From a virus, in the IMG/VR virus record IMGVR_UViG_3300014656_000018, positions 1-64,000 of that record: a stretch of 64,000 nt of DNA; one strand, written 5' to 3'. The notes under the pieces are model-generated. The model was not told the DNA's origin. It ran no database searches and saw only the letters and a program-made list of their open reading frames with translations. Positions 6,449 through 52,721 of this stretch are shown here, piece by piece. Each line of letters begins with the position of its first letter. Position 1 is the stretch's first letter. Position numbers and translations under genes: made by a program.

Positions 6449-6450
6449 AG

Positions 6451-6777: not shown

Positions 6778-6783
6778 ATGTAA

Positions 6784-12013: not shown

Positions 12014-12448
12014 ATGGAAGCAGCAACCCCCCCCACGATGACGTTTGAACAGCTGCAGAAGCTGTTCGGGGGGGGCCTTCAGGCCCCCCCCGCAGCCGCT
12101 CCTGCTCCCGCCGCAGCCGCAGCCGCTCCTGCTCCCGCCGCAGCCGCTCCCACGACTGTGACCGTCCGGATCTCCGAGGACCAGCTCCAGGAGCTGGCCT
12201 CGGGGTGGGCCCACGAGGCCCGCCGGAATGCACCCCTCGGGGTGCAGTGCTTCCGCAAGTACTGCGACGCCGTGGACAAGGCGTCGCCGGAGAGTGCCTT
12301 CGGGCGGATTTTCGTCCACGTCCTCGTCGCCGGGGTACTCACCCTGGTGATCCTGGAAGTCGTGGGAGCCGTCGCCGGCGTCCCCGGCATCCGGCCCTCC
12401 TCAATCGGGATCGACCGGTCCTCGCCGGTCGGTCTCCTGCCCCAGTAG
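12014..12448 (+). CDS. GC-rich early membrane protein (Ala-Pro linker, C-terminal TM helix)
   Basis: AAGGAG RBS at 12001-12006, ATG 12014; TM segment VHVLVAGVLTLVILEVVGAVAGV; almost all codons end in G/C. Confidence 0.7.
   Translation: MEAATPPTMTFEQLQKLFGGGLQAPPAAAPAPAAAAAAPAPAAAAPTTVTVRISEDQLQELASGWAHEARRNAPLGVQCFRKYCDAVDKASPESAFGRIFVHVLVAGVLTLVILEVVGAVAGVPGIRPSSIGIDRSSPVGLLPQ
12091..12147 (+). repeat. 27-bp perfect tandem duplication
   Basis: CGCAGCCGCTCCTGCTCCCGCCGCAGC at 12091-12117 and 12118-12144. Confidence 0.9.
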
Positions 12449-21503: not shown

Positions 21504-22631
21504 CTACTCCAGAAACACCTTGCCGGATAGAATACTTTTAAGTGCCGCTATTTGTGCGGGAGGAGCTGGGGATGGATAATGAGAATGCAGAGCCAGCCAC
21601 TTGACAAGCTGTACCCCTAGAACTCCTGGCTCAGACGCACTCTCACTGCCAAGCTGTATCTTATCCGATGCCTGCACAACCCGAAATTTACAAACATCCT
21701 TCATTATATTTTTTGCTTCCCTGGTAGTGTTCAGCTGAGCACACTCCTTTATACAATTATCTTCCGGAGCTGCAGGTACCTCAGCTCCGACAGATAGGGA
21801 GTAGCCCTTGAGTACATGCTGGGAGAAGCTGCTCTCGACTCTATGAAAGCAGTTGCCTGCAACCTCACGCTCACTTTGACCCTCTACTCTGGAGAACTCA
21901 TTACCCTCTTTATCTAGCCTGAAAATAATGCGCTTTCCTAGTGGAACTCCACCAGGATTGCTGGGCTCGATAATAATTTCCATATAGACAGGAAAAGAGA
22001 ATGCACCGACACCCATATCTCCCTGAGCACCATCCCTCAAGGCTGACTCATCTGACAACTTCCTACCAAACCTGACAAATATAGAGGGGCCGGAGTCATC
22101 GGCTTTCTCTTTGGCACGCAGCTCAAAGAGTGCTTTGGGATCATCCAGGTTGACAGACTCTACCTTCCATTCCAGCTCCCCTCCTATAGCATCCATTCTG
22201 TAGTTCTGGCAGATGTCTCTTATGAGATTTTCCAGAGGTATATACATGCGTTGGGATATAGGCGTAGCACCTATCTGGACTACACCTCCCCTACGTAAAA
22301 AAAGGAAGTTACCGTCCCTGGTGGAAGCCATTATGTCCCCGGGATTCAAGAATGGCCTATTTCCACGATAGACATCCTCTCCCGGAGTCATGATAAAACC
22401 AAGCACAAGGACATTTCCATCACTAGTGTGAGCTAGAATAGCTTGAGAACCAACCTCTGGAACTAGGGTCAACCCCTCTCCCTGGGGATTGTTACAGTAA
22501 GGGGAAGCAAAAGGGACATTCTCTATCTTCTTATGGGAAAATTCCGAATTTACAGTAACCTCGTACTTACGGGTATCTACATCCACTACCCGTGCAAGCT
22601 CTACTACAGGTCTTATCATCAGTATGCCCAT
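21504..22631 (-). CDS. Baseplate central spike (gpV/gp45-like)
   Basis: OB-fold-like N-terminus with VPEVGSQ; C-terminal HSH metal-tip motif. Confidence 0.7.
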   Translation of the reverse strand: MGILMIRPVVELARVVDVDTRKYEVTVNSEFSHKKIENVPFASPYCNNPQGEGLTLVPEVGSQAILAHTSDGNVLVLGFIMTPGEDVYRGNRPFLNPGDIMASTRDGNFLFLRRGGVVQIGATPISQRMYIPLENLIRDICQNYRMDAIGGELEWKVESVNLDDPKALFELRAKEKADDSGPSIFVRFGRKLSDESALRDGAQGDMGVGAFSFPVYMEIIIEPSNPGGVPLGKRIIFRLDKEGNEFSRVEGQSEREVAGNCFHRVESSFSQHVLKGYSLSVGAEVPAAPEDNCIKECAQLNTTREAKNIMKDVCKFRVVQASDKIQLGSESASEPGVLGVQLVKWLALHSHYPSPAPPAQIAALKSILSGKVFLE

Positions 22632-25600
22632 GGCTTATCGGTAGGGGATTTAGCAAACTCCTTACCAAAAGCAATTCCGGGAATGGGTGAGGATCCATGA
22701 AGGTCTGAAATACTTCCTTCCATGGCTGCCTCCTGAACAGTCTGCTTCAGTTTCTTATAGTTCATCTTTGCCAACCAGTCTTCCTGCATGTCCAGAGCAA
22801 GAGTATCCACTCCTCTTAGAACGGGAGCATGTACAATCTTCTTTGCAGAAGGATTCTCCCTATTCCACGCATCCATCTTGTTGGTCGGCGCATAATCTCC
22901 AGGGAGAATATTATTATTATCCCCAGAGTTCACTATCTTGGTCAGGTTGGTGAGAGCCCTCACCACAACCTCTGCATTTCTCCTCTTGATATGCTCTCCG
23001 GAGAAGATCTTATCAACCTCATCAGTAAGATAGTTCTGTGTCCTGTTGATGTTGGTAAGCTCAAGAAGCTCTCTGGGGTGAATAGGACCCGTGGATATCG
23101 CATCCCCCTTGGATATACTACTACCCTTACCAACCTTCAAAGACAGCTGAGAGGGCACATAATGGCGCTCCCCACCAACGAATACACCCCAACCCCCAGC
23201 AGGATCAGATTCTATTTTCTCAATCTTCCCAGAGGTTGTAGCCAGAGTGGCAGCATTGGGAAGCTCTTCCGGAATTTTCATTAACTCAACAAAACGCTCA
23301 AAATCCCCGGTAACGCCACCCCCTGCTGCCGCAGAACCTCCCGTATGGAAAACACGCATAGATAGCTGAGTAGTCCTTTCCCCTAAGGATTGAGACGCTA
23401 TGGCTCCAACATTTGTACCAATATCAGGAGGTCTGCCATCCTCCGATAGACCAAAGCAGTGCTGGCAGATACCGTCCCTATCCTGACACCTCAATGGAGA
23501 TCTGACTACAATCTTACCCACCTTGTTGTTCAGTAGGCTTCCTTGAATCTCTGGAGTAATAAGAGTGCCTGCAGGAAGGGTCTTATCTCTGATCCTTACA
23601 GGAGAAATCAGATATCTATCCAGAGCATTCCTGCTGGATGAGTCCAAAGATATTCCCTTTGTAGTATTACAATCAGGAACCGTGATCAGCTGATTCATGG
23701 TGCTGTTCATCAGCTGTTTGGAGAGATAACCAGGCTTTCTTACCTGCTGAACCTTCTCGGTTATACCTTTCCTTGCCCCAATTGCTCCTACCCAATATCC
23801 GGTAGTGTCTATCCCCTCACTATAGGAGCTTCGAATGGGAATAGGCACAACTCTACCACTGGAGTCAGCCATAAGCATGGGGGCCCATAGTAGCTGCTCC
23901 ATCTGGCTGGCATTTGGCTTTATTCCAGACTGATGCATGTCAAAAATATGATTTCCAGACGCTTTCAGTATGGGAGCATATATCTTACGCAGCTGATCCG
24001 TAGCTTCAGAGTAAACACGGACAATCCTGGCATCCTTGTTTACTTTGGTACCTGATCCTGCCTCTATAGCAGCTACCTTTATATCAGCTTCTCTAAGGAT
24101 CTTATCTCTAGGCTCTTTAGGGATAGCGAAATCTCTCAGTCTGAAGGAGAAGCCCTGACTTGCTGAGCTAAAACCAAACTGCTGCATCTTGTTAGCAAAG
24201 CTGCCAAAATCCTTGGGATACTTCTTTGATACCATACTAAACAGGGATGCTGTAGCCTTCTTGTTGAGTACCAATCTTTCATCTGTAAGATGACCACCCC
24301 CACGGAGGGGTGCTGGTAGGGCTTCATCCAGAAGTACCCTTCCGGGGGTAGTTCTCTTACCATTAAAGGATATAAAATCTGTCATATCTACAGTGCCAGT
24401 CTTGAGATCATTCCTGACCTTGTCATAGCTGGTGTAGCTACCCTTCGTTTTACCCTCACCCCATTTGGTAGCCAGATATAGGCCAAGAAGAGAGTCCAAG
24501 GATGGTTGATACATTGTATCACCACTTGCGGGACTGAATAGGTTACGGGTAGGCATCATAGCATAGGCTTCACGTACTGCTTCAGGGGATACAGGAACAT
24601 ACACACTCATGGCGTCCCCATCAAAATCCGCAGAATAGGCCCCGGTAACCAGAGGATGTATCTTTATAGCTGTACCCTCTACAAGGAGAGGCTTGAATGC
24701 CATGACTGCAAATTTGTGTAGAGCTGGATCTCTTTTGAACAGAACCGGCCTGTCCTTTACTGCAACCTCTAAAGCCTTCTCTGCCAGAGGGGAGTGCTCC
24801 TTCATTACCTCCTGAGCCTCAAGGGGAGTATAACCCTGTCGCACCAGCTCTCTTACCACGAAGGGCTTGAACAGCTCCATTGCAGCTTTTCTGGGAAGAC
24901 CTATGTTATCAAGCTCCATCTTGGGATCGGGTACGATAATAGATCTCATGGTGAGATCCTGCCTTCTCTTCACGACCTTACCCTGAAAGAATCCATGCTT
25001 GGTTGGGGACAGTATCCCCAGAATTCCCTTTGAATCCTGCTTACCACCCAGACCCATGATGGCCTTGATCCCATCATACATTGAAGAGCGGAGAGAGCCT
25101 TTCTCCTCATCAGGGAGACCTTTGGGGAAACCTTTCAGCTGGTGATTCAGAAGAGCAAAGTCTCTATAGAGACCATTCATCTCATCAAAGTTCAGATTAC
25201 CATCCGGAAGAGGTGTTATCGGTCTCATTATAGGAGGAAGAACGGGAAGATTATGGAGTATATATGCTTCCTCTGGAGATATACCCTCTTTATCCAAGGC
25301 TCGCAGGTATCTGATCTTCTTGTTCAGCCTGTCCAGATTTGCTCCTCTAGCTGTCTTGATCTTCTCCTCGGACTCTGCCAGCTCCTTCTTGACATCTATA
25401 GCCTTGAGCATTTCAGCAATAACAATACCCCCGGTCTTACCATTGACATGCTGCTCACCCTCGGCAATCTGAGTCACCTGAGCAATGGTAAGCCCCAAAA
25501 GGCTTCTGATGGCCGGCTCAAATAGAGGATTGGGTATAGGCTCGGCCAGTGATATATGACTCCAGAAATTTCCAGAAATACCACCGGTAGTGATGGGATC

Positions 25601-28600
25601 GAACAGGCCACCGGCCTCCTCTTTGAGGTCCTTGCCTCTCAATATCTTGGTAGGATTCCTGATCTCTCCGTTCGATCTCTCCAAAATCTCTTCATCTGTG
25701 AGGGGGATGAGAGTCAGCTCATTTCCTTTCCGATGAATGTCAATACCCATAGCATTGAGATAGGAGACAAACTTGCTATAAACAAAGCTGGTGGTGGGTG
25801 GTGGAAGGGGCTCACCTGTTTGAATAGCTGCCCAGACATCCTCATTCTTGCTCGTCTTATAGTTCTGCATATCCCTGATATTGAATCGTGCACCCATGGA
25901 GAGCAGGGAGTATAGGCCAAGCTCCCCGATGGATTGAGCACCCTCAGATCCTCCTCTCTTGGGAATCATGTTTATATCGTAGGAACCTCTGGATCTCACA
26001 GAGAGCTTCTTTATTGCCTGATGATGGAGCTTCAGTATATACTGGCTTCCGGTAAATATCTCCCCCAAAGACCTGCCGGTATTGGGATCAAAAAGCTCCT
26101 CAGTATCGCTAAGACCTGCTTTCTCAAGCTCCTCCATGACCTTTTTGGTGTAATCTATCTTTCTCTCATGAGGCTTAACCCATATCTCTTTTAGGCCTTC
26201 TTCAGTTTTGACGGTTCTATAATGTCCCTTTACTTGTACCGTCTTCTCCTGAGTTGAAGCAAAATTGGATACCAGAAAGGGCTTACCGTTCTTTATGGCA
26301 ACTTTACTGAGGGCTGTTTCCAGGAGCTGGCCCGGATTTACACGTCCGGCAACACCAGTCGGGTTGAGCAATATATGGACAGGGTTTCCACTCTTATCAT
26401 GAGGCATCTCATGATCCGGAATTATGGCTGTCACAACACCTTTATTCCCATGTCTGCCAGATAATTTATCTCCAATTTGTATGGGTTCTTCCGTACGAAT
26501 CAAAACACTGATGTTTTTTCCGTGTTGATGGACATCAACCACGGTTCCTGAGAATGGATAATCCCATTTCTCTGACATGTCTCTATAGGGCTTGACTAGA
26601 GACTTGCTGAGTCGAGATAGGTTTACTGCCTCTCCTGTGGAAACCTCCTTCCTCATCACCGCAGAAATATAATTATCCGTATTAAGGGTCTGACCCACCC
26701 TGATAATACCTGAGTCATCAAGCTTCTCTGCCTGATCTCTGGTAATCCTGTCTGGGAAGTAGGACTGAAACTTCTTCTTGTTTGTAACTACATTCCTATC
26801 AACAAACACACCTTTCTGATATAAATGCTGGCTTGTAAGCTCCTCAGCAGCAGTTTCTGAGATGACAATTCCGTCCTCAAAATTCAGACCATGATAGGGC
26901 AAGTATGCAACTCTAATATTCTTACCCAATGACAGTGTACCTTCCCTGCTATAGTTGGTATCTGCAATAATCTGTCCGGACTTTACCTTGTCACCGACCT
27001 TGACCAGAGGGGTTGACCACAAACCTGTACGGGAGTCATTGAGGGGAAAGTTATCATATATCTGATATTCCCTAACCCCAGACTTTCCCTTGACCTTTAT
27101 GAAGTCCTTCCCGATAGAGTAAACCTCACCATCCTCCATGGCAGCAGTAGATGTTAGGTTACCAAAGACATCTTCATATGAGCGGCCATCCTCTGTAGCA
27201 GTCTGCACATGTGGCTGCTCCCTATGCTTCAGGGAAATTGCCTGCTCTATGTGCCTGGCAGCCATTTCAACCCTGTTTCCTGAATCTGAGGATAGAAAAG
27301 GAACCAGATTGACTGTTGGACTGAAAAGCATCTTTGCAGAGGGAAGGATGTATTCTACATCACTAAAGGGTTTCAGCTGAAGCTCATTGGCCTTACCACT
27401 GACCTTGATTCTGTCAGCAACAGGTACAGGCTTCTTTCCCCGCCACTCTACCTGATCCGGCATTGCTACCACTGCATCGTACAGTTGTAGTGCAGACTTA
27501 TCCTCCTTCTTACCAGTCCTTGCATTGATAACAGGGATGATGGGAGTGGTTCCCTTCTTACTTACACCAAGTGCTAGATGAAGAGAGACCCCGGACTTGG
27601 CACTCTCCGGGGTATGTAGAGGATCCAGAAAACCCAGGTGGGAGTTATCTACCATCTTGGCTTCCGAGGTAATAGCGTGTTCCGAAGAGATACCTCCACC
27701 CTCAGAGGAAAGAATAGTAGTTCTTAATTTTCCGGAGATCATCTCCATGGGATTAATCTGGGGGGACATTGAAGATAAAGATACTGAGGAGAACCAGGAG
27801 CGAATAGGCTTATTGAATATATCCGAGGTTATTATCTCCCGGATGTCTGTCTTCCTATCTATGTTGTTGTTTAGCTGCCTGTTGATAGCTCTGCTGGAGT
27901 TCAGCAGCCTCTCCTTTAGGTAGTCCTCTATTCCCCACAGCTCCTTGAATGGTAGAGCATCTCTGGGATCTGGCTCAGCCTGACCTCTGGAGATTGCCAG
28001 AAGCTTTGAGGCACCTGACAGAAGAGCTGGACCGGAAACGGTGGTAAAGGGTGTGCCCAGATTTATCTTGTTTACATCAGGAAGCATCTGGGTATCCCCA
28101 AATGTCTCCCGTACAAAGCTGCCAAGATCTACATCTGCAGTAGACCTATCTCCCATTGCAGCCTTATAAAACTTCTGTAGGCTCTTATTGTTGTCAACTT
28201 TGCTATTAGCCTGAAAAATCACATCTCCCCAGGCCTTCTTCATTTCACTATCTGATACCCCCATGGCAGATAGGATAGGTTTCAAGGGAACATTGGAGGT
28301 CCCATACTTCAGGATATAACTTCTGCTCTCCGGATCGAATCCTATGCTAAACCCAAGCCCACGGGACAGGTTCCACTGAGACTCCAACTGGCCGTTGGCT
28401 TTGATCCGGGCATATATTCCGGATTTTAATCTCCATAGATTATCAACACTTCTCTCATTCCCTTCAACTATGAAGGAGTAGCGTTGGGTAATCTTTGGAA
28501 GATTAAGAATGCGTATAGTCTTGCTATCTACTATCTTTCCGGTCTGCTTATCCTTCAGCCTGAACGTTCCATTAACCGGAATCGTCCAGGATGAGCCGGC

Positions 28601-28774
28601 CATCTTGGCCTTTCTCTGTGAACGGAAATCCTCCGGATCAAGATTGTCATCTACCTCAATCTTGTCCAGAGTCAGGGTGTGGGAGCGACCTTCTATAGGA
28701 AAGAAAGTCTTGGCCTGCTCCACCACCCCTTCTTTGAGAGCGGCCATTGCTCTCTGAGGGTTGAGCAAATGCAT
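22619..28774 (-). CDS. rpoBC: Single-chain fused beta-beta' DNA-directed RNA polymerase
   Basis: Beta motifs HTPES, GLNFEDGI, GDKLSGRHGNKGV, GAQSIGEL; beta' motifs KRDPALH, SADFDGD, PGYLSKQL, RSPLRC, ASQSLGERTTQLSMRVFHTGG; probable start ATG 28774. Confidence 0.95.
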   Translation of the reverse strand: MHLLNPQRAMAALKEGVVEQAKTFFPIEGRSHTLTLDKIEVDDNLDPEDFRSQRKAKMAGSSWTIPVNGTFRLKDKQTGKIVDSKTIRILNLPKITQRYSFIVEGNERSVDNLWRLKSGIYARIKANGQLESQWNLSRGLGFSIGFDPESRSYILKYGTSNVPLKPILSAMGVSDSEMKKAWGDVIFQANSKVDNNKSLQKFYKAAMGDRSTADVDLGSFVRETFGDTQMLPDVNKINLGTPFTTVSGPALLSGASKLLAISRGQAEPDPRDALPFKELWGIEDYLKERLLNSSRAINRQLNNNIDRKTDIREIITSDIFNKPIRSWFSSVSLSSMSPQINPMEMISGKLRTTILSSEGGGISSEHAITSEAKMVDNSHLGFLDPLHTPESAKSGVSLHLALGVSKKGTTPIIPVINARTGKKEDKSALQLYDAVVAMPDQVEWRGKKPVPVADRIKVSGKANELQLKPFSDVEYILPSAKMLFSPTVNLVPFLSSDSGNRVEMAARHIEQAISLKHREQPHVQTATEDGRSYEDVFGNLTSTAAMEDGEVYSIGKDFIKVKGKSGVREYQIYDNFPLNDSRTGLWSTPLVKVGDKVKSGQIIADTNYSREGTLSLGKNIRVAYLPYHGLNFEDGIVISETAAEELTSQHLYQKGVFVDRNVVTNKKKFQSYFPDRITRDQAEKLDDSGIIRVGQTLNTDNYISAVMRKEVSTGEAVNLSRLSKSLVKPYRDMSEKWDYPFSGTVVDVHQHGKNISVLIRTEEPIQIGDKLSGRHGNKGVVTAIIPDHEMPHDKSGNPVHILLNPTGVAGRVNPGQLLETALSKVAIKNGKPFLVSNFASTQEKTVQVKGHYRTVKTEEGLKEIWVKPHERKIDYTKKVMEELEKAGLSDTEELFDPNTGRSLGEIFTGSQYILKLHHQAIKKLSVRSRGSYDINMIPKRGGSEGAQSIGELGLYSLLSMGARFNIRDMQNYKTSKNEDVWAAIQTGEPLPPPTTSFVYSKFVSYLNAMGIDIHRKGNELTLIPLTDEEILERSNGEIRNPTKILRGKDLKEEAGGLFDPITTGGISGNFWSHISLAEPIPNPLFEPAIRSLLGLTIAQVTQIAEGEQHVNGKTGGIVIAEMLKAIDVKKELAESEEKIKTARGANLDRLNKKIRYLRALDKEGISPEEAYILHNLPVLPPIMRPITPLPDGNLNFDEMNGLYRDFALLNHQLKGFPKGLPDEEKGSLRSSMYDGIKAIMGLGGKQDSKGILGILSPTKHGFFQGKVVKRRQDLTMRSIIVPDPKMELDNIGLPRKAAMELFKPFVVRELVRQGYTPLEAQEVMKEHSPLAEKALEVAVKDRPVLFKRDPALHKFAVMAFKPLLVEGTAIKIHPLVTGAYSADFDGDAMSVYVPVSPEAVREAYAMMPTRNLFSPASGDTMYQPSLDSLLGLYLATKWGEGKTKGSYTSYDKVRNDLKTGTVDMTDFISFNGKRTTPGRVLLDEALPAPLRGGGHLTDERLVLNKKATASLFSMVSKKYPKDFGSFANKMQQFGFSSASQGFSFRLRDFAIPKEPRDKILREADIKVAAIEAGSGTKVNKDARIVRVYSEATDQLRKIYAPILKASGNHIFDMHQSGIKPNASQMEQLLWAPMLMADSSGRVVPIPIRSSYSEGIDTTGYWVGAIGARKGITEKVQQVRKPGYLSKQLMNSTMNQLITVPDCNTTKGISLDSSSRNALDRYLISPVRIRDKTLPAGTLITPEIQGSLLNNKVGKIVVRSPLRCQDRDGICQHCFGLSEDGRPPDIGTNVGAIASQSLGERTTQLSMRVFHTGGSAAAGGGVTGDFERFVELMKIPEELPNAATLATTSGKIEKIESDPAGGWGVFVGGERHYVPSQLSLKVGKGSSISKGDAISTGPIHPRELLELTNINRTQNYLTDEVDKIFSGEHIKRRNAEVVVRALTNLTKIVNSGDNNNILPGDYAPTNKMDAWNRENPSAKKIVHAPVLRGVDTLALDMQEDWLAKMNYKKLKQTVQEAAMEGSISDLHGSSPIPGIAFGKEFAKSPTDKPWAY

Positions 28775-28780
28775 GATGTC

Positions 28781-28811
28781 AAAATACGATAGTTCAGGCC
28801 AGCAGGTCAAC
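28781..28811 (-). promoter_or_regulatory. Putative sigma70-like promoter GTTGACC-N18-TATTTT, possibly giving a leaderless RNAP mRNA
   Basis: The -10 hexamer ends 6 nt before ATG 28774; no SD sequence. Confidence 0.5.
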
Positions 28812-29159: not shown

Positions 29160-29235
29160 ACTCCCAGGTAGGAATGGTCTTCCTAAGGGATCTTATAAGT
29201 CTCTAAAACCGGTTCAATTCCGGATGGGAGTACCA
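29160..29235 (+). tRNA. tRNA-Ile(UAU)
   Basis: 76-nt cloverleaf: acceptor ACTCCCA/TGGGAGT, D stem TAGG/CCTA, anticodon loop CTTATAA (TAT at 29194-29196), T loop TTCAATT, discriminator A, encoded CCA. Confidence 0.85.
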
Positions 29236-29261: not shown

Positions 29262-29366
29262 ATGGCAAGCCACGAGGAGTTTTCAACGTCCGTGGAAGAG
29301 AGTTTGGGGTTGGGGGATTGGGAGGAGGAGGAAGAGGAGGAAGATAAGGAGGACGAGGAGGATTAG
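29262..29366 (+). CDS. 34-aa hyper-acidic micropeptide (not in ORF track)
   Basis: Perfect SD TAAGGAGGT; MASHEEFSTSVEESLGLGDWEEEEEEEDKEDEED. Confidence 0.65.
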   Translation: MASHEEFSTSVEESLGLGDWEEEEEEEDKEDEED

Positions 29367-29376
29367 AAGGAAAAAG

Positions 29377-29538
29377 ATGTTTAGGATATTTCTTGCCTCA
29401 ATCTTTGTCAGTTTCTTCGGGGAAATTGGGCTCCAGCTGGCATTATGCAGAGCTGATGTAGAAAGGAGCTTGCTGGGAAATGAAGCTGACATTCTGCCGG
29501 CTGATAAAAGAAATAGAGGGACAACGCCTGCTATGTGA
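29377..29538 (+). CDS. 53-aa peptide with a hydrophobic N-terminus (not in ORF track)
   Basis: AAGGA RBS; MFRIFLASIFVSFFGEIGLQLALC... Confidence 0.4.
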   Translation: MFRIFLASIFVSFFGEIGLQLALCRADVERSLLGNEADILPADKRNRGTTPAM

Positions 29539-29716
29539 TACTGCGGAATGCGAAACCTGTCTACTGCTGGATAAGTATATAGAAGATAAATATGGGGGGA
29601 GAGTGGATTACCTCTGCTCCGGCTGTGTGGAGCAGAGAAGGTCTACTGGTTTTTACTCTACAGGGAAATGTGACCTATGTCATCAGCAAGTGATGATTTT
29701 GCACATCTGCCTATAA
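29480..29716 (+). CDS. Small Cys-rich (Zn-binding) protein
   Basis: CETC, CSGC, CDLC; AAGGAG upstream. Confidence 0.55.
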   Translation: MKLTFCRLIKEIEGQRLLCDTAECETCLLLDKYIEDKYGGRVDYLCSGCVEQRRSTGFYSTGKCDLCHQQVMILHICL

Positions 29717-29985
29717 GCAGCCCGGTTCTCCAAAATGGGCACAATCTACCAAGGTGTGCCTTATGTGGAGAGCCCTTTGAGCCAGATAATGAAGATGAGA
29801 TAATTCTTGTAATTCATCCAATGTTACTGGAGACCAGCAAGAAGTCTGGGAGAGTAAGATTGGTTGATTATGAGTTCAATGTACAAAGAAACGGTCTGGA
29901 CGGTTTGGGGAAGTTCTATTGGCATTATGAATGTGCGGTAGAACAGTTACTGGACCCATCTGTAATAGGACACTTCTATGACTAG
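29677..29985 (+). CDS. Small Zn-finger protein
   Basis: CALC...WHYEC treble-clef-like pattern. Confidence 0.55.
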   Translation: MSSASDDFAHLPISSPVLQNGHNLPRCALCGEPFEPDNEDEIILVIHPMLLETSKKSGRVRLVDYEFNVQRNGLDGLGKFYWHYECAVEQLLDPSVIGHFYD

Positions 29986-33594: not shown

Positions 33595-36500
33595 TTATAC
33601 GCTGTCAACATACCTGACCTGGGTTGTAACAGTCTCTCCATTTGCGCCCAGGATAAAGTCTGCCACTGCCCCCAAGGGGAGAACGTTGGTAAACTCTGCA
33701 TTATCACCATCTACCACAACACGTAGAACGGTATTGCTCGGTCTCCCAGGATAAGGCTGGGTAGACTGGTCTGCAGGATAGGCAAGGGCACCATGATCAT
33801 ATCGAGCTACCGTAGCTACTCCAGAATAGTTAAAGGAGTGCACTGCTGTCAAAGCAGCCGTCGCAGCTGTGGGAACAGCAGTACCACCAGCTGCACCTAG
33901 ATTGGCGAAGTCTCCAGTTGCCAGAACACCAAGAGCTACGTAACCGGAAGTGGCAGGATTGGTGGTAGCTGCTGTCATATCCAGGCGGTTGATAAGAATA
34001 CCACCACCGGATGTAGAGCCGTCCTCTCCGGTAATAGCAATCAAGGCAGCCGCAGCAGCGACAGCACCCAGGGTTGCCTGCAAAGTAGTGACCGTGCTTG
34101 CTGCACCGTTAAGAGTGATATGAATGTCATGATATGGAGCATTGAGTGTATATGTAATTACCTCTGCCCCATTCTCGATAAAAGCGAGACGTATGGTTGT
34201 AATACCGGGATCAATGGCTGTAATTCTAAAGGGTGTATTTGCAATATTAGGATCTATAGCACACTCATCCCTTCCTACACCACCATTGAAATTGCTACCA
34301 ACGATGCGCAGTGTGGCATCAGCATCGTCGGCAATACCTGTCAGGCCAGTGCATCCCTTATCTACCAGACCGGCAACAGATAGAATGGTGGGAAGAGGAG
34401 GAGCAGTGTCTACATAGTTCAACGCAACAGCGTTAGACCACAGGGTGGCATTCTGGATACGGAAAGTGTATGCTTGATGTCTTGTAAGACCAGCAAAAGC
34501 GACATCATCACCATCCAGCGTGAGCATAAGAGTGCCATCACTGGGGTATGTCATGGGGGACAGAGACTGATCTACAGGATAAACACCTGCAGCTGATTGC
34601 TCATGAATAAACAGTGCGGCAGTAGTAATACCACCATACTCGAAGGAATAACCTGCAAACACAGCCGTACCGGCTGTTACAGTGCCTGTAGCTCCGGGAA
34701 TATTGGCTCCAGTAAGAGCATTCAAAGCAATATACGCCGATGTAGCAGGATTGTTTGTTGCCCCCAGAGTGTCAATCTCGTTGGCAGCAATTACACCGAC
34801 CCCACTGGATGTATCTGCACCGGTGATGGCAATCAGGGATCGTGCTGTAGCTTCAGTAAGAAGTAAAGTTCTCAAAGAAGTCGGTGTGCTAACACCACCA
34901 TTATAATTGATATGGATCTGATGATCAGCTCCAGTCAGGGTATATGTAATTGCCTCTGCGGCATTATCGAAGAAGGCTACCTGAATTGTAGTGAGTCCGG
35001 GAGCCAGAGCAGCAACTCTAAAGTCAGAGTTGGCAGCAGCACAGTCTACTACACAGGTATCTCTTCCCAAACCTGCATTGAAGTTGGTTCCACTAATGGA
35101 AAGCACAGTATCTACGTCATTTGCAACACCTGGAAAGTCTGCCCCCATCTTGTCTATCTGATCTGTCTGCGCATCAGCAATAGTTGCAGCCGTTGCAGCA
35201 ACGCTAGTAACCCTACAAACAGACACAGGAGTCGACCACCTACTATTGCCAGCAACCAGGAAAGAGTAAGGATAGTAGCGAGTGAGGCTGGAGAAATCGG
35301 CGTGGTTACTGTCCATGGCAAGCATCAGGGTAGTATCACTAGGATATTCCTGAAGAGATCCGAACTGATTTGAGGGATACACTAACTCTGCTACATCCTG
35401 CTCATGTGTAAACCTGGCAGGGGTAAAGACACCAGCATAACTAAAGCCATAACCACTAAACGTTCCGGCCCCGGCAGTAACCACACCAACAGCGCCCGGA
35501 ATGTTAGCTCCGGTAAGAGCGTTGAGAGCCACATAAGCAGAGGTAGCAGGAACTATAGTAGCTCCCAAAGTATCAATCTCACCTGCTCCTATAAGACCAG
35601 CTCCGGTACCACCATCCTCCCCGGTAATCGTGATAAGGGTACGGGCTGTAGCTTCCGCCAGAAGAGCAGTCCTGAGAGCCGCAGGACTAGTAGGAAGAGC
35701 GTTATCATACTCAAAATGGATAGAGTGGACTCCACCTATGAGGGTATAGGTGCAGGTGATCGCCCCAGCTGCTGGAGTATCAATCATGGCGATCTGAATA
35801 TTTGATGTACCAGGATTGATAGCATGAATTCTGAAATCAGCATTGGGAGTTAAAGCTGTAGTAATAACAGCTGTATCCCTACCCAGACCGGCATTGAAAT
35901 TAGCTCCCTGAAGCTTCAACACAGTGTCAGCAAAGGAGTCAATACCGAAGATTTGGGGGACGTTGGCATCGGCAGCAGCAGAATCTATACCGGTAAGAAC
36001 CGGAGGAGTAGCAGCCGAGCTGTCTATACGAAGAAGATTGATAGTGTTTGACCAGAGGCTTGTAGCAGCAACTCGGAAGGTATGCTGAGCATAAAGGGTC
36101 AAGCCGGAAAAATCCGCATGATTGCTATCTACCAGAACACGAAGCTTCGTGTTACTAGGCCTGTCCAGAGGATTGCCGACCTGACTGATAGGATACTGTG
36201 TAGCTTCATGCGTGAAGCGTGCAGCAGTAGAGATGGCAGCGTACTCGAAAGTATGGCTTCCACCAGTATCGGTAGCTGCAGTAACCGTACCTGTTCCGGC
36301 TCCGGGAAGATTTGCTCCAGTCATGGAGGCAAAAGCAATATATGCCGATGTGGCTGGAACAATGGTTGCCCCAAGAGTATCAATGGACCCAGCAGTAGTG
36401 ATAAAGGCAGCTCCTGTTTCACCATCATCCGCTGTGATGGCAATCAGGGTAGTGGCTGTAGCCTCTACCAGAAGAGCTGTCCTGAGAGTAGCTGGGGAAG

Positions 36501-37788
36501 TAGTAGCAGCATTGCTATCATACTGAAAATGAATAGAATGCACCCCTCCTATAAGAGTATATGTGCAGACGGGAGCACCCGCCGCAGGTACGTCAAAGAA
36601 GGCAAGCTGAATATTGGAAAGACCTGGATTCAGAGCTGTAATGTAAAAGGCGGTATTCGCATCCCCGGAATCCAGAAGAACTGCATCTCGTCCCACACCA
36701 ACATCAAAGCCAGTGCCTCGCAGCTCCAGGGTAGTGTCTGCATCATCGGCGACACCCATCATGGTGCTGTCATTTGCATCAGTCTTGTCTGTCTCTACCC
36801 CCTGAAGATAAACAGCTGAGGACGTTCCCACAGTGTCAACATAACGAACAGCCATCTCATTGCTACGGTATCCGTCAAGAGACAGGGTAAATGGATACAG
36901 ATACTGGGCAGTCAGAGTGGCAGTAAATGCAGCATGATCCCCATCTACCAGAACCCTGAGGTAGGTATCAGAAGGAAGCTGTACAGCGGCAACCTGGCTG
37001 ATAGGATACTGTGCTGCGGAGTGAGTAAACCTAGCAGCGGTGGAAATACCGGCAAAGCTAAAGCTGGTAGTTTTGGCTGCTCTACTCAGCAAACCATAGG
37101 TAACAACAACGCTATCAGCGCCGGGAAGGGTGGTTGTGGTGAGCTGCCCAAGACGCACATAAGCGGAGGTAGCCGAGGAAGCAGTAGCCCCCAGGGTGGA
37201 AATCTCACCTGCAGTAATTACCCCAGCACCAGTCCCTCCTGTGTAAGCCACTACAGCGATAAGACCCAAGGCTGTGGCCTCAGCAAGCACAGCAGCTCTT
37301 ATGTCTGTCGGGCGGCTGCCTGCACCCAAACCACCTCCGGTAGAATCATAGACAATATGAATCTTGTGACGGCCATCAGATCCCAAAGTATAGGTACAGG
37401 TCTCTGCGCCGGCAGTGACATCGTCAAAGAAGGCAACATCAATCTTCGGGTCTCCGGGAACTAAGGCTACGACCCGAATTCCGGAGTTGATGCCTGCTAC
37501 ATCTCCGATCAGGACACTATCTCTACCAATACCGACGTTGAAATTTACCCCAACAAGAGCGAGAGTAGTATCTGCATCGTTGGCGATACCATAGTTGAAT
37601 CCAGAATCCTTGTCCGCCACCCCAGCCAGCTGGGTGATGAACGGTCTGTTGGTACCGGCTTCAAGAGAAACAAAGGCCTCATCAACATCATCACGGAGAT
37701 CTGCGATCTCTGCTCCGATACCACCTGTACCACGCAGAATGTGCGGACGATCAGGGCGCTTCTGTCCAAAAAGTACGCTGTCACCCAT
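33595..37788 (-). CDS. Large virion decoration/fibre protein with five ~265-aa beta-rich repeats
   Basis: G[IV]xxxxDxxLxxxGxxFxxGxGRD recurs five times; Ala/Thr/Gly-rich. Confidence 0.75.
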   Translation of the reverse strand: MGDSVLFGQKRPDRPHILRGTGGIGAEIADLRDDVDEAFVSLEAGTNRPFITQLAGVADKDSGFNYGIANDADTTLALVGVNFNVGIGRDSVLIGDVAGINSGIRVVALVPGDPKIDVAFFDDVTAGAETCTYTLGSDGRHKIHIVYDSTGGGLGAGSRPTDIRAAVLAEATALGLIAVVAYTGGTGAGVITAGEISTLGATASSATSAYVRLGQLTTTTLPGADSVVVTYGLLSRAAKTTSFSFAGISTAARFTHSAAQYPISQVAAVQLPSDTYLRVLVDGDHAAFTATLTAQYLYPFTLSLDGYRSNEMAVRYVDTVGTSSAVYLQGVETDKTDANDSTMMGVADDADTTLELRGTGFDVGVGRDAVLLDSGDANTAFYITALNPGLSNIQLAFFDVPAAGAPVCTYTLIGGVHSIHFQYDSNAATTSPATLRTALLVEATATTLIAITADDGETGAAFITTAGSIDTLGATIVPATSAYIAFASMTGANLPGAGTGTVTAATDTGGSHTFEYAAISTAARFTHEATQYPISQVGNPLDRPSNTKLRVLVDSNHADFSGLTLYAQHTFRVAATSLWSNTINLLRIDSSAATPPVLTGIDSAAADANVPQIFGIDSFADTVLKLQGANFNAGLGRDTAVITTALTPNADFRIHAINPGTSNIQIAMIDTPAAGAITCTYTLIGGVHSIHFEYDNALPTSPAALRTALLAEATARTLITITGEDGGTGAGLIGAGEIDTLGATIVPATSAYVALNALTGANIPGAVGVVTAGAGTFSGYGFSYAGVFTPARFTHEQDVAELVYPSNQFGSLQEYPSDTTLMLAMDSNHADFSSLTRYYPYSFLVAGNSRWSTPVSVCRVTSVAATAATIADAQTDQIDKMGADFPGVANDVDTVLSISGTNFNAGLGRDTCVVDCAAANSDFRVAALAPGLTTIQVAFFDNAAEAITYTLTGADHQIHINYNGGVSTPTSLRTLLLTEATARSLIAITGADTSSGVGVIAANEIDTLGATNNPATSAYIALNALTGANIPGATGTVTAGTAVFAGYSFEYGGITTAALFIHEQSAAGVYPVDQSLSPMTYPSDGTLMLTLDGDDVAFAGLTRHQAYTFRIQNATLWSNAVALNYVDTAPPLPTILSVAGLVDKGCTGLTGIADDADATLRIVGSNFNGGVGRDECAIDPNIANTPFRITAIDPGITTIRLAFIENGAEVITYTLNAPYHDIHITLNGAASTVTTLQATLGAVAAAAALIAITGEDGSTSGGGILINRLDMTAATTNPATSGYVALGVLATGDFANLGAAGGTAVPTAATAALTAVHSFNYSGVATVARYDHGALAYPADQSTQPYPGRPSNTVLRVVVDGDNAEFTNVLPLGAVADFILGANGETVTTQVRYVDSV

Positions 37789-38986: not shown

Positions 38987-39424
38987 GTGGGAAATTCATA
39001 CACTGATAAGTTTCTGAGGAAGCCCAGGTGCTTTGGTGAAAAGTATGATTCAGAGGATGCTGAGTGTAGAAAGGAGTGTCCATTTAGGGAGGATTGCTAC
39101 GAGGTGTGGGAAAAGGAGGTATTCCTGAAGGAGGCCAGAAGAGTACCCACTACGCCCTACTATTATGGAAGGCAGAAAGAGGAGAAAACATCTTCTTATG
39201 TTGCAGAAGATAAGCTAGCTCCTCTTCTGAAAATTGATGAGATCATACCATATGAGGGAGAAGCCTGGTACTCCAGGCTGTGGTGGAATTCTCTATCCTC
39301 TGCCCTCAGCGCCATGGGCCACGAGACTCATATGTTCTTTCGATACTATCGATTTCCGCCAGACAGAAAACTTCTTAGTGGCAGAAAGACTATAGATATA
39401 GATGCTGAGGTAAAGAAAAAATGA
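38987..39424 (+). CDS. Hypothetical protein with an N-terminal 4-Cys cluster
   Basis: CFG...ECRKECPFREDC. Confidence 0.65.
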   Translation: MGNSYTDKFLRKPRCFGEKYDSEDAECRKECPFREDCYEVWEKEVFLKEARRVPTTPYYYGRQKEEKTSSYVAEDKLAPLLKIDEIIPYEGEAWYSRLWWNSLSSALSAMGHETHMFFRYYRFPPDRKLLSGRKTIDIDAEVKKK

Positions 39425-39606
39425 AATGGATCAGAGCCAAAGTGGGAACCTTAGCTGCAAGCAAGATACTCCACATCAGGGGAAGAATTCAACTGGGTGA
39501 GTTTATCGAATGGCGAGAAATTGGAGAGACTAAGTGGACAAAGACCCACCGAGGATTGATTGATAAGATCAACTCTGATGGGCTTATTTTTGTTGAGAGA
39601 ATGTGA
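39421..39606 (+). CDS. Small hypothetical protein
   Basis: Overlaps both neighbours by 4 nt. Confidence 0.55.
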   Translation: MKWIRAKVGTLAASKILHIRGRIQLGEFIEWREIGETKWTKTHRGLIDKINSDGLIFVERM

Positions 39607-40025
39607 AAGTGCTACCTTGGGATATACTAAAAAGAGAGCGTGAAAAAAATAACCTTTCTGGAAGGGATACAGCAGCCAAGGTAGGTATATCCAGGGAGGC
39701 ACTCAGAAAGATAGAAGATGGAAGGCTCATACCTAAGAATATTGTCCTAAGAGGGCTGGTCCGGATATATGGTATAAGCCCCCCTGAAGCTCGGCACCTA
39801 TACGGATTGGTGTGTAAAGAGAGAGTAAAAAGATCCTCGATAATAAGGGATTATAATGATCTCAAAAAAGACATAGGTGATATGAAACTGAATAAGCTGG
39901 TGTCGAAGATATCTGCGGACATCATAGATGCTATACGTAATGGGGATCAGTTAAATAGCTTAGGTCTGTATAAACAGATAGACGAGATAGTAAAAAAATG
40001 TGTGGAAAGCTGGGACAGAAGTTGA
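39603..40025 (+). CDS. XRE-family HTH protein
   Basis: LKREREKNNLSGRDTAAKVGISREALRKIEDGRLIP. Confidence 0.8.
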   Translation: MKVLPWDILKREREKNNLSGRDTAAKVGISREALRKIEDGRLIPKNIVLRGLVRIYGISPPEARHLYGLVCKERVKRSSIIRDYNDLKKDIGDMKLNKLVSKISADIIDAIRNGDQLNSLGLYKQIDEIVKKCVESWDRS

Positions 40026-41356
40026 GGTTTGTAGAAAAGGACACAGGCGCTATTTACTGGGGAACTGAACTATGGCTCCCAAAAAGTAAGGTACCAGTAG
40101 AATCAATAAAAGCAAGCCTGACCTTTGATGTAGGTGATGACAGGATATGTGTCTGGAAGGAAACAGATAAGCATATAATCACCCCCAGAGAGCTGTTCAG
40201 TCCCGAAAACCTACAAAATTTCCATTGTCCTATTTTTGATGTAAGGCAGAGAGAATATGATGTAGTACATTTTCAAGACCGTTTCTTACCTAGAAGCCAG
40301 GTACAGGAAGATGCCTGGAAAGTTTTATCAAAAGCAGGTTGTGGTGTAGTTAATATAGCTTGCGGGGGTGGTAAAACAGGATTGGCTCTAAAGAAGGCAG
40401 CACAGCAGAGAGGTCCCACACTTGTCGTCATAAATAACACAGGAACGGGTAAGCAATGGATGGAAGAGGCAAACAAGTTCCTGGGATTGGGTAAGGATGA
40501 GATTGGCCTTGTAAAAGGATCCATATTCGATTGGAAGAAGCCTCTGGTGATAGCTACCATACAAACACTCTCAAAGAGGGCAGAGCAGTGGCCCGATGAG
40601 TTCCTGAGGAGATGGAAAACAATTATCTTCGATGAAGTTCATCATACCTCTGCCAGAGTTTTTTCTAAAGTGCTTCCTTTATTTCATGGAATAAGAATAG
40701 GACTGACTGCAACCCTACATAGGGAAGATGGCCTTGAGGATATTTTCCTCTATCATGTAGGTCCTGTCATTTTCTCTGATCTCAGCCAGGAACTACCGGC
40801 AAAGATATACTTCCAACAGACTCCATTCTATTGCTCCATGACAGACCCAAATATTTTAGACATCAGAGGAGAGTTCAATATAGGCAAATTCTATGCTTAC
40901 CTGGGCAGAATGGAGGATAGAAACAGTTTTCTGGTTGAACACATAAGTAGAGCCCTATTCAATGGGAGAAAGATCTTGGGGTTTACCCACAGCAGGGAAC
41001 ACACAGAGCTACTCCATAAGGTTATAGAAGAGAGTGGGGTAATTCACGGAGGCATCAAAGCGGGAGACAGGCTAAGGATACTGAGGGAGTGCAGAGCAGT
41101 ATTTGCCACCCCCGGCTGTGCTGAAGAGGCAATGGATGATCCAGCTCTGGATACTATCATGTTCTTCACACCATACCAGGTATGGAGAACCTTCCAACAA
41201 GGAATAGGGAGATCACAAAGAAGGTTTGGCGATAAAAAGGAACCCATGGTTGTTTTATTTGAGGATATCCGTATACCACCATCCAGGGGACTATATAACC
41301 AGCTGAGAGGACATCTGAGGAAGTTTGGTTATGATTTCAGTACGGTAAAGATCTGA
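39998..41356 (+). CDS. Superfamily II DNA helicase (UvsW/XPB-like)
   Basis: ACGGGKT, FDEVHH, GLTAT, QQGIGRSQR. Confidence 0.85.
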   Translation: MCGKLGQKLRFVEKDTGAIYWGTELWLPKSKVPVESIKASLTFDVGDDRICVWKETDKHIITPRELFSPENLQNFHCPIFDVRQREYDVVHFQDRFLPRSQVQEDAWKVLSKAGCGVVNIACGGGKTGLALKKAAQQRGPTLVVINNTGTGKQWMEEANKFLGLGKDEIGLVKGSIFDWKKPLVIATIQTLSKRAEQWPDEFLRRWKTIIFDEVHHTSARVFSKVLPLFHGIRIGLTATLHREDGLEDIFLYHVGPVIFSDLSQELPAKIYFQQTPFYCSMTDPNILDIRGEFNIGKFYAYLGRMEDRNSFLVEHISRALFNGRKILGFTHSREHTELLHKVIEESGVIHGGIKAGDRLRILRECRAVFATPGCAEEAMDDPALDTIMFFTPYQVWRTFQQGIGRSQRRFGDKKEPMVVLFEDIRIPPSRGLYNQLRGHLRKFGYDFSTVKI

Positions 41357-42054
41357 TGTACAGGACACCTAAAGAGATAAGAAGTGCGTGGGGAGATTGT
41401 AGGCGTTGTGGTCTGCGTGCAGGGGCCAAGAATATGGTGTTTGGGGAAGGAAACTCCAATGCAGACATAATGATCATAGGTGAAGCCCCTGGAGAGTGGG
41501 AGGATTCTACCGAGGTTCCCTTTATTGGAGAGTCCGGAGACGTACTCACTCTGTTTCTCCACAACACCAAACTACTAAGAGAGGCCTTCACAGACAGGGA
41601 GCTTGACGCCCTACAGGCTGGGACGTTGCAGGGTGTAACCATAAGAGAGAAGAGAAACAACATATACATGACAAATCTGGTACAGTGCAGGCCACCAGAC
41701 AACCGAAACCCCAGCGATATTGAGGTAAAAGCTTGCTGGCCCAGGTTAGCGGCCCAGATCTACTCTGTGGACCCCATGCTGATAATCGCCCTGGGGGGCG
41801 TTGCTGCAAGATTCCTGATGGATAGGGATGTAACAATCACTACGGAGAGAGGGAGCGTGCTTGATATAACCTTTCCCGGACTGACGGGGAATTATCAGAT
41901 TCCGGTCATGTTGTGTCTACATCCAGCATATTTGATGAGAAATGCTGATAGGAGGCCTGGAGGGATCTGGGAGAAGATGCACAATGACCTGGAGATGGCA
42001 AAGACAATAGTGGAGACAGCCAAGGCTGCTTATAGGGGTGATAATGTCCACTAA
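41356..42054 (+). CDS. udg: Uracil-DNA glycosylase family 4
   Basis: CRRCGL, IGEAPG..E, PFIG, TNLVQCRPPDNRNP, HPAY. Confidence 0.9.
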   Translation: MYRTPKEIRSAWGDCRRCGLRAGAKNMVFGEGNSNADIMIIGEAPGEWEDSTEVPFIGESGDVLTLFLHNTKLLREAFTDRELDALQAGTLQGVTIREKRNNIYMTNLVQCRPPDNRNPSDIEVKACWPRLAAQIYSVDPMLIIALGGVAARFLMDRDVTITTERGSVLDITFPGLTGNYQIPVMLCLHPAYLMRNADRRPGGIWEKMHNDLEMAKTIVETAKAAYRGDNVH

Positions 42055-42472
42055 AGAGATTGACGAACTTCAAAAAGAGTTGGGGAAGATCAATGATACA
42101 ATGATCGAAGTAGAGGAAAGGGCCTCTCAGGAATTCATGGATTGGTACAAATTACATGAGAGAAGGAACCAGGTGATAGAAAAGCTCAGGGGGGTTATAC
42201 GTCAGACCCCGTTTGAGGGTAAGAGCTTCAACTATGGGATGTTCAGAGTGACTAGAGCAGTGAGAAGGGAGGTAGATATCTCCGAGCTTAGGAAAAAAGT
42301 ACCAGAAGCCTTCATACTTCCAGGTGTTGTAACCAAGGTTGATGTAAAGGCTTTAGAATCAGCTATTGCTTCCGGAGATATTGATAAAGAGAAGGCAGAG
42401 ATGATTAGGGGCTGCTTCTCCGAGGAGGAGGATACTCCTCGCATTCATGGACCCAAGATAGTAGACCTATGA
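42038..42472 (+). CDS. Hypothetical coiled-coil protein
   Basis: Coupled ORF in the replication operon. Confidence 0.6.
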   Translation: MIMSTKEIDELQKELGKINDTMIEVEERASQEFMDWYKLHERRNQVIEKLRGVIRQTPFEGKSFNYGMFRVTRAVRREVDISELRKKVPEAFILPGVVTKVDVKALESAIASGDIDKEKAEMIRGCFSEEEDTPRIHGPKIVDL

Positions 42473-42807
42473 AAAAGCAATCCTGGGCAGCTGTTAGAAA
42501 AAGGGGGGAGCTGCTGATGAATACAGATACGGAGAGGGAAATGCCGAAAAAAGCTAAAGATGAATATACCAATCTAGTTGGGGATGGGAAAGCAAAGGTA
42601 CACCGTATGGTAACACTGGGGATGTCCAAAGAGATAGGACGTAACTTCTGGGTAAAGGCAGATGTCGGAGCCATCTGTGAGCTGTCATGTAACCAAGATG
42701 AGGCTACCATATTGAAGGCAGGAAAGCTGGCGCAGGAGTTGGCCAGCAGCTGGGCTTCTGATGAGTTTGGTGAAGCTAATAGCTTCATTGACAGCTTCAA
42801 ATCATGA
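42469..42807 (+). CDS. Hypothetical protein
   Basis: Coupled ORF. Confidence 0.6.
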   Translation: MKKQSWAAVRKRGELLMNTDTEREMPKKAKDEYTNLVGDGKAKVHRMVTLGMSKEIGRNFWVKADVGAICELSCNQDEATILKAGKLAQELASSWASDEFGEANSFIDSFKS

Positions 42808-43136
42808 AGAGTGCAAGGTGCAAAATCTCTGGGGCTATATTGATGGAGGGCAACTTCAGGGGGAAGGATCATCCCGAAGGGCCCATGCTTACTTCATCCT
42901 TTGCGTATATAATGGAAGGAAGAGAGGGATTTGAGACCTGCGGAAAGATAGATTTTATATCCCCAAAATACTATAACGCCTGGCCAGAGGACATCAAAAA
43001 TAGGTTGAATGATCTGGTAGAAGCCTTGGAGAATCACTTTATCAACGACAGCGGACTATTTGAAGGTAATGAGGAAGTAATACATGCCACTATCCCTACA
43101 AGACCTACAGAGCAGCGGGAACCTGAAGAGTTTTGA
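42804..43136 (+). CDS. Hypothetical protein
   Basis: Coupled ORF. Confidence 0.6.
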   Translation: MKSARCKISGAILMEGNFRGKDHPEGPMLTSSFAYIMEGREGFETCGKIDFISPKYYNAWPEDIKNRLNDLVEALENHFINDSGLFEGNEEVIHATIPTRPTEQREPEEF

Positions 43137-44157: not shown

Positions 44158-44259
44158 ATAGTTAATACTAACTGGGTGATTCTGAACAGGAAATCATCTA
44201 TTGACTACCAATTTTCGAGAGGATAGCGTGTTGTATTAGAGACAGACGTGGAGAGATGA

Positions 44260-47628: not shown

Positions 47629-47638
47629 GGGAATTATA

Positions 47639-48676: not shown

Positions 48677-48691
48677 ATTAGTACTATAGAC

Positions 48692-48724
48692 AGTGGGGGG
48701 GAGGATTATCTCCCCCCCACTTTT
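48692..48724 (+). terminator. Intrinsic terminator
   Basis: AGTGGGGGGGAG/CTCCCCCCCACT stem plus T run. Confidence 0.75.
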
Positions 48725-48732
48725 CCGGAGAT

Positions 48733-50670: not shown

Positions 50671-50678
50671 GAGATCTC

Positions 50679-52455: not shown

Positions 52456-52461
52456 GATTAT

Positions 52462-52713: not shown

Positions 52714-52721
52714 GATTTGTA

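Follow-up and report, generated by a model that had tools for sequence, protein, structure and literature searches.

Both phage tRNAs and the decoding of AUA by UAU anticodons in a few bacteria are already known. AUA decoding by tRNAs with a CAU anticodon depends on TilS, an essential host enzyme that converts C34 to lysidine; a tRNA that carries a UAU anticodon would need neither lysidine nor TilS, by virtue of the anticodon itself. [quoted passage not shown] Charging of such tRNAs depends on the type of IleRS: the M. mobile-type enzyme accepts UAU well, whereas the E. coli-type enzyme charges a UAU tRNA-Ile at about 1% of the efficiency seen with the lysidine form (PMC3575796). UAU is also the commonest anticodon of the allo-tRNAs (PMC5389517, PMC7609411). 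Nothing specific was found in the literature on phage Ile-TAT tRNAs or on phage tRNAs with 6-bp D-stems, in searches that were limited and are no proof of novelty.

The gene considered here, a tRNA-Ile(UAU)-type gene of 76 nt with an encoded CCA (29160-29235, plus strand), belongs to an uncultured phage that occurs in groundwater metagenomes and has a depth of about 100x in its groundwater community. The window analysed is the first 64 kb (64,000 nt) of a 98-kb IMG/VR record whose completeness is about 53% according to CheckV, and the candidate is the only tRNA-like gene in these 98 kb. It sits in an intergenic gap of ~860 bp, with the start of a minus-strand RNA polymerase (RNAP) gene on one side and small plus-strand ORFs on the other. 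A large phage family with genomes of about 180-200 kb and its own multisubunit RNAP has been described (PMC7481178). The divergent neighbour of the tRNA (22619-28810, minus strand) encodes a fused beta-beta' multisubunit RNAP of 2063 aa, with the Pfam domains Rpb2_6 and Rpb1_1/2/3/5, and places the phage in the mReC-type family; it has 876 homologues at E<=1e-30, and its closest relatives (P0002-P0005) are 54-65% identical. In the protein collection, the RNAP product (P0001) is 2042 aa long, i.e., 21 residues shorter than the longest ORF. The gene therefore probably starts somewhat further in than the TTG at 28810 (region 28747-28810, minus strand), and the gap before the tRNA would then be slightly longer.

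On the other side, 27 nt past the CCA of the tRNA, lies a highly acidic 34-aa ORF (29263-29367, plus strand) with a strong AAGGAGG ribosome-binding site and a run of Glu/Asp at its end; the tRNA and this ORF probably share a transcript. Also part of this short rightward unit is a Cys-rich ORF of 78 aa (29480-29716, plus strand) with several CxxC-type motifs, zinc-ribbon-like in appearance, and the ORF that overlaps it (29677-29985) has no Pfam match. A candidate promoter motif, GGTATAAGA, is found upstream of two rightward units and is not enriched (16 matches vs 15.6 expected), and scans for sigma-70 promoters and terminators returned nothing specific to the tRNA.

Read in segments, positions 29160-29235 of the plus strand are ACTCCCA-GG-TAGGAA-TGGTC-TTCCTA-A-GGGAT-CTTATAA-GTCTC-TAAA-A-CCGG-TTCAATT-CCGG-A-TGGGAGT-A-CCA, and the minimum-free-energy fold is exactly the cloverleaf that this division implies. 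The acceptor stem is a perfect 7 bp (ACTCCCA/TGGGAGT), including C4-G69, and is followed by the discriminator A73 (29232) and the CCA end (29233-29235). The anticodon TAT (29194-29196) is presented in the loop CTTATAA (29192-29198), with U33, A37 and A38, on a stem GGGAT/GTCTC that A26-U44 could lengthen to 6 bp. The D-arm is non-canonical: in the stretch from 29167 to 29185, a G8-G9 linker precedes a D-helix of 6 bp (TAGGAA/TTCCTA, 29169-29174 with 29180-29185) closing the 5-nt loop TGGTC, which holds G18-G19. A 4-nt variable loop (TAAA) then leads to the T-arm (29208-29224), made of an A49.A65 purine-purine pair flanking the 4-bp stem CCGG/CCGG and of the T-loop TTCAATT. Among the nucleotides involved in tertiary structure, G18-G19, U33, TTC, A58 and G53-C61 are present; the near-universal or Ile-specific features that are missing are U8, G10, A21, U12-A23, G16 and C29-G41. 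The original prediction had described the gene accurately in all these respects, namely its 76-nt length, TAT anticodon, A73, A37/A38, C4-G69, G8, D-stem extendable to 6 bp and A49-A65 mismatch.

Generic detectors do not report this gene. ARAGORN at default settings finds no tRNA gene (0) in either the 64-kb window or the entire 98-kb record, Rfam at gathering scores gives no match for the candidate, and the tRNA model RF00005 has no match at E<=1 in the 98-kb record. With lowered thresholds, in contrast to the default ones, ARAGORN calls the candidate as tRNA-Ile(tat), while its best permissive Rfam match, tRNA-Sec, owes its 24.9 bits (cut-off 47) to the D-arm. Identity as tRNA-Sec was rejected, as the anticodon is UAU and not UCA, the variable loop has 4 nt and only the D-arm is Sec-like. 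A cloverleaf arising by chance was ruled out by simulation: relaxed ARAGORN, applied to 150 Markov-simulated genomes with the same trinucleotide make-up (14.7 Mb), gave 23 hits, of which two were shorter than 77 nt, none had a CCA end and none carried TAT.

Other viruses carry tRNA genes built in the same way. A first scan of viral contigs, with a pattern made of the anticodon loop and the T-arm, matched at least 119 contigs, showing that ordinary tRNA(TAT) genes are common in the uncultivated viruses of IMG/VR; a tRNA(TAT) gene is called by default ARAGORN in 68 of the 80 loci fetched. The D-loop of the candidate is shorter than that of all 68, and a few of the 68 have a candidate-like G8-G9 and an AGGAA...TTyCT D-arm. 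A second scan, with that D-arm plus the anticodon loop, yielded 40 tRNA(tat) genes with the architecture of the candidate; 38 of them pass default ARAGORN, and the bracket string is identical to the candidate's in three. The traits of this family are G8-G9 (with G at position 8 throughout), a 6-bp D-helix of consensus (G/U)AGGAA...UU(U/C)CU(C/A) that absorbs A14, a GG-containing D-loop of 4-6 nt, an A-rich variable loop of 3-4 nt and, often, a purine-purine 49-65 pair, in combination with a normal 7-bp acceptor stem and T-loop and an anticodon stem extendable to 6 bp.

An alignment of 19 unique members with the candidate (A4), for which pair statistics were computed on 18 distinct sequences, delimits what is conserved. 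No variation is seen at G8, G9, the D-helix core, G18-G19 or A73, nor anywhere in the anticodon loop or in the AAA of the variable loop, and differences in length are confined to the D-loop. Stem cells are paired at 97.1%, as compared to 41-53% in slid-partner controls, and 15 of the 23 pairs have changed on both sides, which none of 500 shuffles reached. The 6-bp D-helix is 100% paired in the 18 distinct sequences, with an outer pair that is G-C in 16 and U-A in 2. The non-standard purine-purine 49-65 pair recurs in 5 of the 18 distinct members and is thus a trait of the family rather than damage. In the family alignment without the candidate (A5), a sixth pair of the anticodon stem is possible in each of the 17 distinct sequences, with variation that is one-sided only. 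The four-arm cloverleaf is therefore backed by pair-preserving evolution in the family.

A covariance model (R1) was built from 19 unique viral tRNA(UAU) members, leaving the candidate out. The candidate scores 71.2 bits on it (E about 2.5e-19) and gives R1 its sole hit, whether the window or the full 98-kb record is searched, while ordinary viral tRNA(TAT) genes score 20-51 bits; the candidate also falls within the subfamily as R1 defines it, all the columns that characterise the subfamily being invariant or covarying. Judged by these sequence comparisons, it is a member of a conserved, covarying tRNA family found in the tRNA clusters of other phages, and neither a product of chance nor one of decay. 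The compact-core tRNA(UAU) class is recurrent, non-canonical, under-detected and apparently undescribed.

Under-detection extends to other members. The Rfam tRNA model misses four of the six other family members probed and gives the remaining two 33-42 bits, where the adjoining tRNAs obtain 45-72 bits; tRNA(UAU) genes called by ARAGORN that lie below the Rfam tRNA gathering score are those of loci L152, L287, L290 and L312. The failure of the candidate is thus a property of the class and a limit of the model. A score as a pseudo-tRNA had been set in the original prediction as a sign against the gene; the generic tools do reject it, but this reflects a limit of the tools, as shown by the other family members that they miss. 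Infernal-based tRNA inventories of viral metagenomes probably under-count the compact-core tRNA(UAU) class.

The members of the main group sit in tRNA clusters with genes for Lys-UUU, Gly-UCC, Arg-UCU, Thr-UGU and Leu-UAA, i.e., tRNAs for other A-ending codons. In the one carrier of this group that was checked (L263), the gene for gp32 (a single-stranded-DNA-binding protein) resembles cyanophage and pelagiphage genes, and the phage looks, from that gene, like a marine T4-like myovirus; the carriers of the family would be marine T4-like phages and one very large phage. The very large phage is represented by a 268-kb fragment (G010), about 62% complete, with 55 tRNA-model matches over several clusters and no detectable mReC-type RNAP. 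It is the source of the closest homologue of the candidate (L312), which sits 8 nt past a canonical tRNA-Asp, also has an A73-CCA end and has a D-arm, anticodon arm and variable loop almost as in the candidate. The acceptor stem of L312 is entirely different, yet paired, and is bulged; its T-stem differs by two double compensatory changes.

Closer to the candidate's own phage, neither a tRNA(TAT) gene nor anything similar was found near the RNAP gene in 8 + 8 + 80 loci of relatives (RNAP identity <=49%), and the whole records of nine relatives contain no member of the R1 family. The relatives examined carry Gln, Thr, CTA-suppressor or large canonical tRNA sets instead. Because no family member is present in the relatives examined and the closest homologue is in an unrelated giant phage, the tRNA at 29160-29235 was probably acquired horizontally. 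A donor search in bacterial genomes returned only tRNA-Glu and tRNA-Arg genes that share the T-arm and the 3' acceptor strand, and cultured phages, searched with the candidate, yielded nothing beyond partial matches to unrelated tRNAs. No variants of the tRNA sequence were seen in four groundwater runs which, being >=99% identical, are uninformative on selection. No RNA run was among the sequencing runs listed as containing this stretch.

Other RNA genes were noted in the same RNAP-encoding phage family. CTA (amber-reading) tRNA genes are present at L011:1500-1572, L012:1500-1574, L095:12277-12350 and L132:8894-8970 and hint that some of these phages might suppress or recode TAG; within the window, the genes are open throughout under code 11. 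A 100-nt tRNA-SeC(TCA)-like gene occurs in one relative (L135:1136-1235), and two relatives have tmRNA genes (L010:2476-2836 and L132:398-769), with the tag peptides ANDNINVFARQLAVA and GRPAVKLAA.

What the candidate does is best explained by a role in translation: it is probably a phage tRNA that reads AUA directly via UAU, independently of TilS, and compensates for the codon use of the phage. It is rather unlikely that the locus instead produces a tRNA-derived RNA with no role in translation, whether a decaying pseudo-tRNA, a signal for RNase P/RNase E processing by which the mRNA of the small ORF is released, or a decoy for host nucleases that target tRNAs. Several observations would fit such an RNA, including the sub-threshold standing of the candidate for both ARAGORN and Rfam, the missing U8 and the A49.A65 mismatch, and the position of the candidate, as the sole tRNA-like gene in 98 kb, directly upstream of a small ORF predicted to be strongly translated. 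The closest homologue, L312, moreover has a bulged acceptor stem, and the annotation of phage T5 lists several 'tRNA-like stable RNAs with unknown functions'. However, the four stems of the candidate are intact and the CCA, A73, G18-G19, the T-loop and a perfect anticodon loop are all present. Its apparent defects recur in many members located within ordinary tRNA clusters and evolving in a pair-preserving way, and it reaches 71 bits on the family model. An invariant anticodon loop, finally, is demanded by decoding and not by a mere processing signal.

The codon use for which the tRNA would compensate was counted on ORFs picked by a simple greedy procedure, which span 96.5% of the record. ATA ranks first among the Ile codons, with 768 occurrences out of 1964 (39%), against 605 ATT and 591 ATC, and its share in long ORFs is 0.38, vs 0.30 expected from the third positions of 4-fold codons. 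Over 84 loci of the phage family, the ATA share ranges from 0.01 to 0.55, with a median of 0.10, and tracks GC; that of this phage is high for its 47% GC within the RNAP-phage family. The other carriers of the tRNA(UAU) family have a median ATA share of 0.21, below an expectation of 0.39, and this moderate use implies that the link between the tRNA and ATA-richness is not general.

ATA use also differs between the genes of the phage (chi2 212 on 69 df, P 2e-16; 178 on 68 df with GC3 as covariate). The original prediction had opposed two genes in this respect, and the recount is exact for both: the gene for an HTH protein (39603-40025, plus strand; Pfam HTH_31/HTH_3), located in the replication block 38987-55342 (ATA 49%), uses ATA for 14 of its 16 Ile codons (ATT 1, ATC 1), and the gene 12014-12448 for none of six (ATT 1, ATC 5). 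The unevenness that they were meant to illustrate is real, but a split by early/late or replication class is not borne out, as per-gene use forms a continuum with extremes rather than two clean classes and it is head genes that avoid ATA. Codon counts, GC3-corrected residuals and PHROG matches define an ATA-avoiding block at 3482-7608 (minus strand), which consists of the gene for the major head protein (3482-4705, ATA 1/35) and its neighbours (0/11, 0/6, 0/12, 1/6 and 2/11). ATA is also avoided in the gene for a 1397-aa repeat protein (10/84) and in GC-rich genes at 11.9 kb and 91-94 kb; the low-ATA GC-rich genes look acquired. The 1397-aa gene (33595-37788, minus strand) is the strongest ATA-avoiding outlier after GC3 correction, with a residual of -6.2 despite its low GC3 of 0.39, which suggests high expression or a separate origin. 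Conversely, ATA-rich genes occur in every module, such as those for the terminase (19/34) and the RNAP (51/138), in addition to the replication block, and ATA makes up 45% in a 36-kb leftward block of large genes (55.5-91 kb).

Codon avoidance in highly expressed genes is the usual sign of selection. The ATA pattern is the one expected from selection on the most highly expressed genes if AUA decoding is limiting, and it suits codon compensation better than gating. The idea that the tRNA gates ATA-rich replication genes is not supported by the counts, since ATA-rich genes are in all modules and avoidance concerns the major head gene and its neighbours. It is improbable that a working tRNA brings its main benefit through timing of this kind or through defence, by replacing a host AUA decoder that a host defence, or the phage itself, has destroyed or depleted. 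The strongly uneven use of ATA between genes and the position of the tRNA as the first gene of a short rightward unit, within a divergent promoter region, would agree with such a role, and phage tRNAs have been proposed to evade anticodon nucleases (PMC10264068, where Ile is not mentioned). Yet the terminase, the RNAP and the 36-kb leftward block are ATA-rich too, so that ATA use does not set any temporal class apart, the genes low in ATA are the major head gene cluster and acquired-looking GC-rich genes, and the candidate promoter motif is not enriched.

A more ambitious possibility, to which only a slim chance is given, is that the tRNA(UAU) family constitutes a phage-specific 'orthogonal' AUA decoder, whose rebuilt core would free it from host factors that act on canonical tRNA-Ile2 (dependence on TilS, nucleases directed at the anticodon or D-arm, and quality control) and which would still be charged by IleRS. 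In this phage, U34 would perhaps be modified by a cassette of phage cysteine-desulfurase and radical-SAM genes (91-94 kb), which would prevent AUG misreading. If true, the phage would be self-sufficient for AUA decoding, and its use of ATA above the compositional expectation would be explained.

Both this possibility and the preferred reading, an AUA decoder that compensates for codon use, call for charging with isoleucine. The bacterial Ile identity set comprises A73, C4-G69, U12-A23, G16/U20/U21, C29-G41 and positions 34-38 (PMC9976931). The candidate holds A73, C4-G69, A35, U36, A37 and A38, and does not match the minor determinants at three places, where it has G12-C23, U16 and G29-C41 instead; the Met determinants U4-A69 and A5-U68 are absent. 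In the family, A73 and the anticodon loop are invariant, 17 of the 18 sequences have C4-G69 and 15 have C29-G41, and over its 3' two-thirds the main group is similar to the tRNA-Ile(GAU) of T5-like Salmonella phages (84% over 49 nt). Isoleucine is, on these sequence features, the best-supported amino acid for the candidate. An unmodified U34 could misread AUG. A long variable arm is a determinant for SerRS. Charging with a non-Ile amino acid and partial recoding of AUA, as proposed for Sec-like allo-tRNAs, is very improbable in spite of the Sec-like D-arm with tRNA-Sec as best Rfam match, the predominance of UAU among allo-tRNAs (PMC5389517, PMC7609411) and the suppressor-type tRNAs of some relatives of the phage, as the 8/4 acceptor/T fold of allo-tRNAs fails in 18/18 sequences (the eighth pair, 8 with 65, is unpaired and the variable loop has 3-4 nt), the long variable arm recognized by SerRS is absent, and the A73 and C4-G69 Ile set is conserved with no Met determinants beside it.

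Taken as an Ile-charged decoder of AUA, the tRNA would be transcribed from the divergent intergenic region, heading the short rightward unit, then processed by the host RNase P and provided with t6A37. The host IleRS would charge it through A73, C4-G69 and A35-U36-t6A37-A38, and the charged tRNA would raise the AUA-decoding capacity of a genome whose commonest Ile codon is ATA. We infer, rather than observe, that the tRNA is expressed, that it receives Ile, how its U34 is modified and that the phage benefits. A TilS-independent decoder, as first proposed, is nonetheless likely, since the gene is genuinely of tRNA type, has UAU as its anticodon and carries Ile-like determinants, in an ATA-rich phage. 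For this phage, the tRNA offers a concrete, testable reason for an unusually high use of ATA.

What is new beyond this phage is a class of phage tRNA-Ile(UAU) that recurs, deviates in structure by its compact core of Sec/Pyl-like type and is present on at least 40 viral contigs from very different phages. The class is largely invisible to the Rfam tRNA model and, if its tRNAs are charged and used, the tRNA inventories of viral metagenomes are incomplete for it. Charging and use would also mean that some phages are free of the host TilS step on which T4 and T5 still depend, and that IleRS and the ribosome tolerate a tRNA core far from the canonical one, which would be useful for tRNA engineering and AUA reassignment.

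Several known tRNAs share parts of this architecture. tRNA-Sec and the Sec-like allo-tRNAs have in common with the candidate a 6-bp D-stem, a 4-5-nt D-loop of UGGU type and a possible 6-bp anticodon stem (PMC5389517), but combine them with an acceptor/T domain of 8/5, 9/4, 8/4 or 9/3 and a long variable arm, whereas the candidate is 7/5 and the variable loop of its family has 3-4 nt. tRNA-Pyl and mammalian mt-tRNA-Ser(UCN) likewise combine a small D-loop with a lengthened anticodon stem and a variable loop of 3 nt, and mt-tRNA-Ser(UCN) also retains G18-G19 and the T-loop (PMC7609411); both differ by the single linker nucleotide between acceptor and D-stem and by their identities, the likeness being architectural only. 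Ordinary viral tRNA(TAT) genes have the same anticodon loop, CTTATAA, and the same T-loop, and differ by U8, a 4-bp D-stem and a D-loop of 7-11 nt.

With respect to function, T4 and T5 are alike in supplying extra, phage-borne capacity for the rare AUA. Their tRNA-Ile genes, however, have a CAT anticodon, for which the host TilS is still needed, and are canonical in shape and part of large tRNA clusters. Nearest in decoding strategy are the tRNA-Ile2(UAU) of M. mobile and other tilS-lacking bacteria and the suppressor tRNA-Ile1(UAU) of B. subtilis, in which UAU likewise reads AUA without lysidine or TilS; as for the candidate, this requires A35-U36-t6A37 and an IleRS that tolerates U34 (PMC3575796, PMC3919564). 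These bacterial tRNAs are cellular, adopt a canonical cloverleaf and have co-evolved with their own IleRS (Arg865) and ribosome, whereas the candidate is carried by a phage, departs from the canonical core and has to rely on a foreign IleRS.
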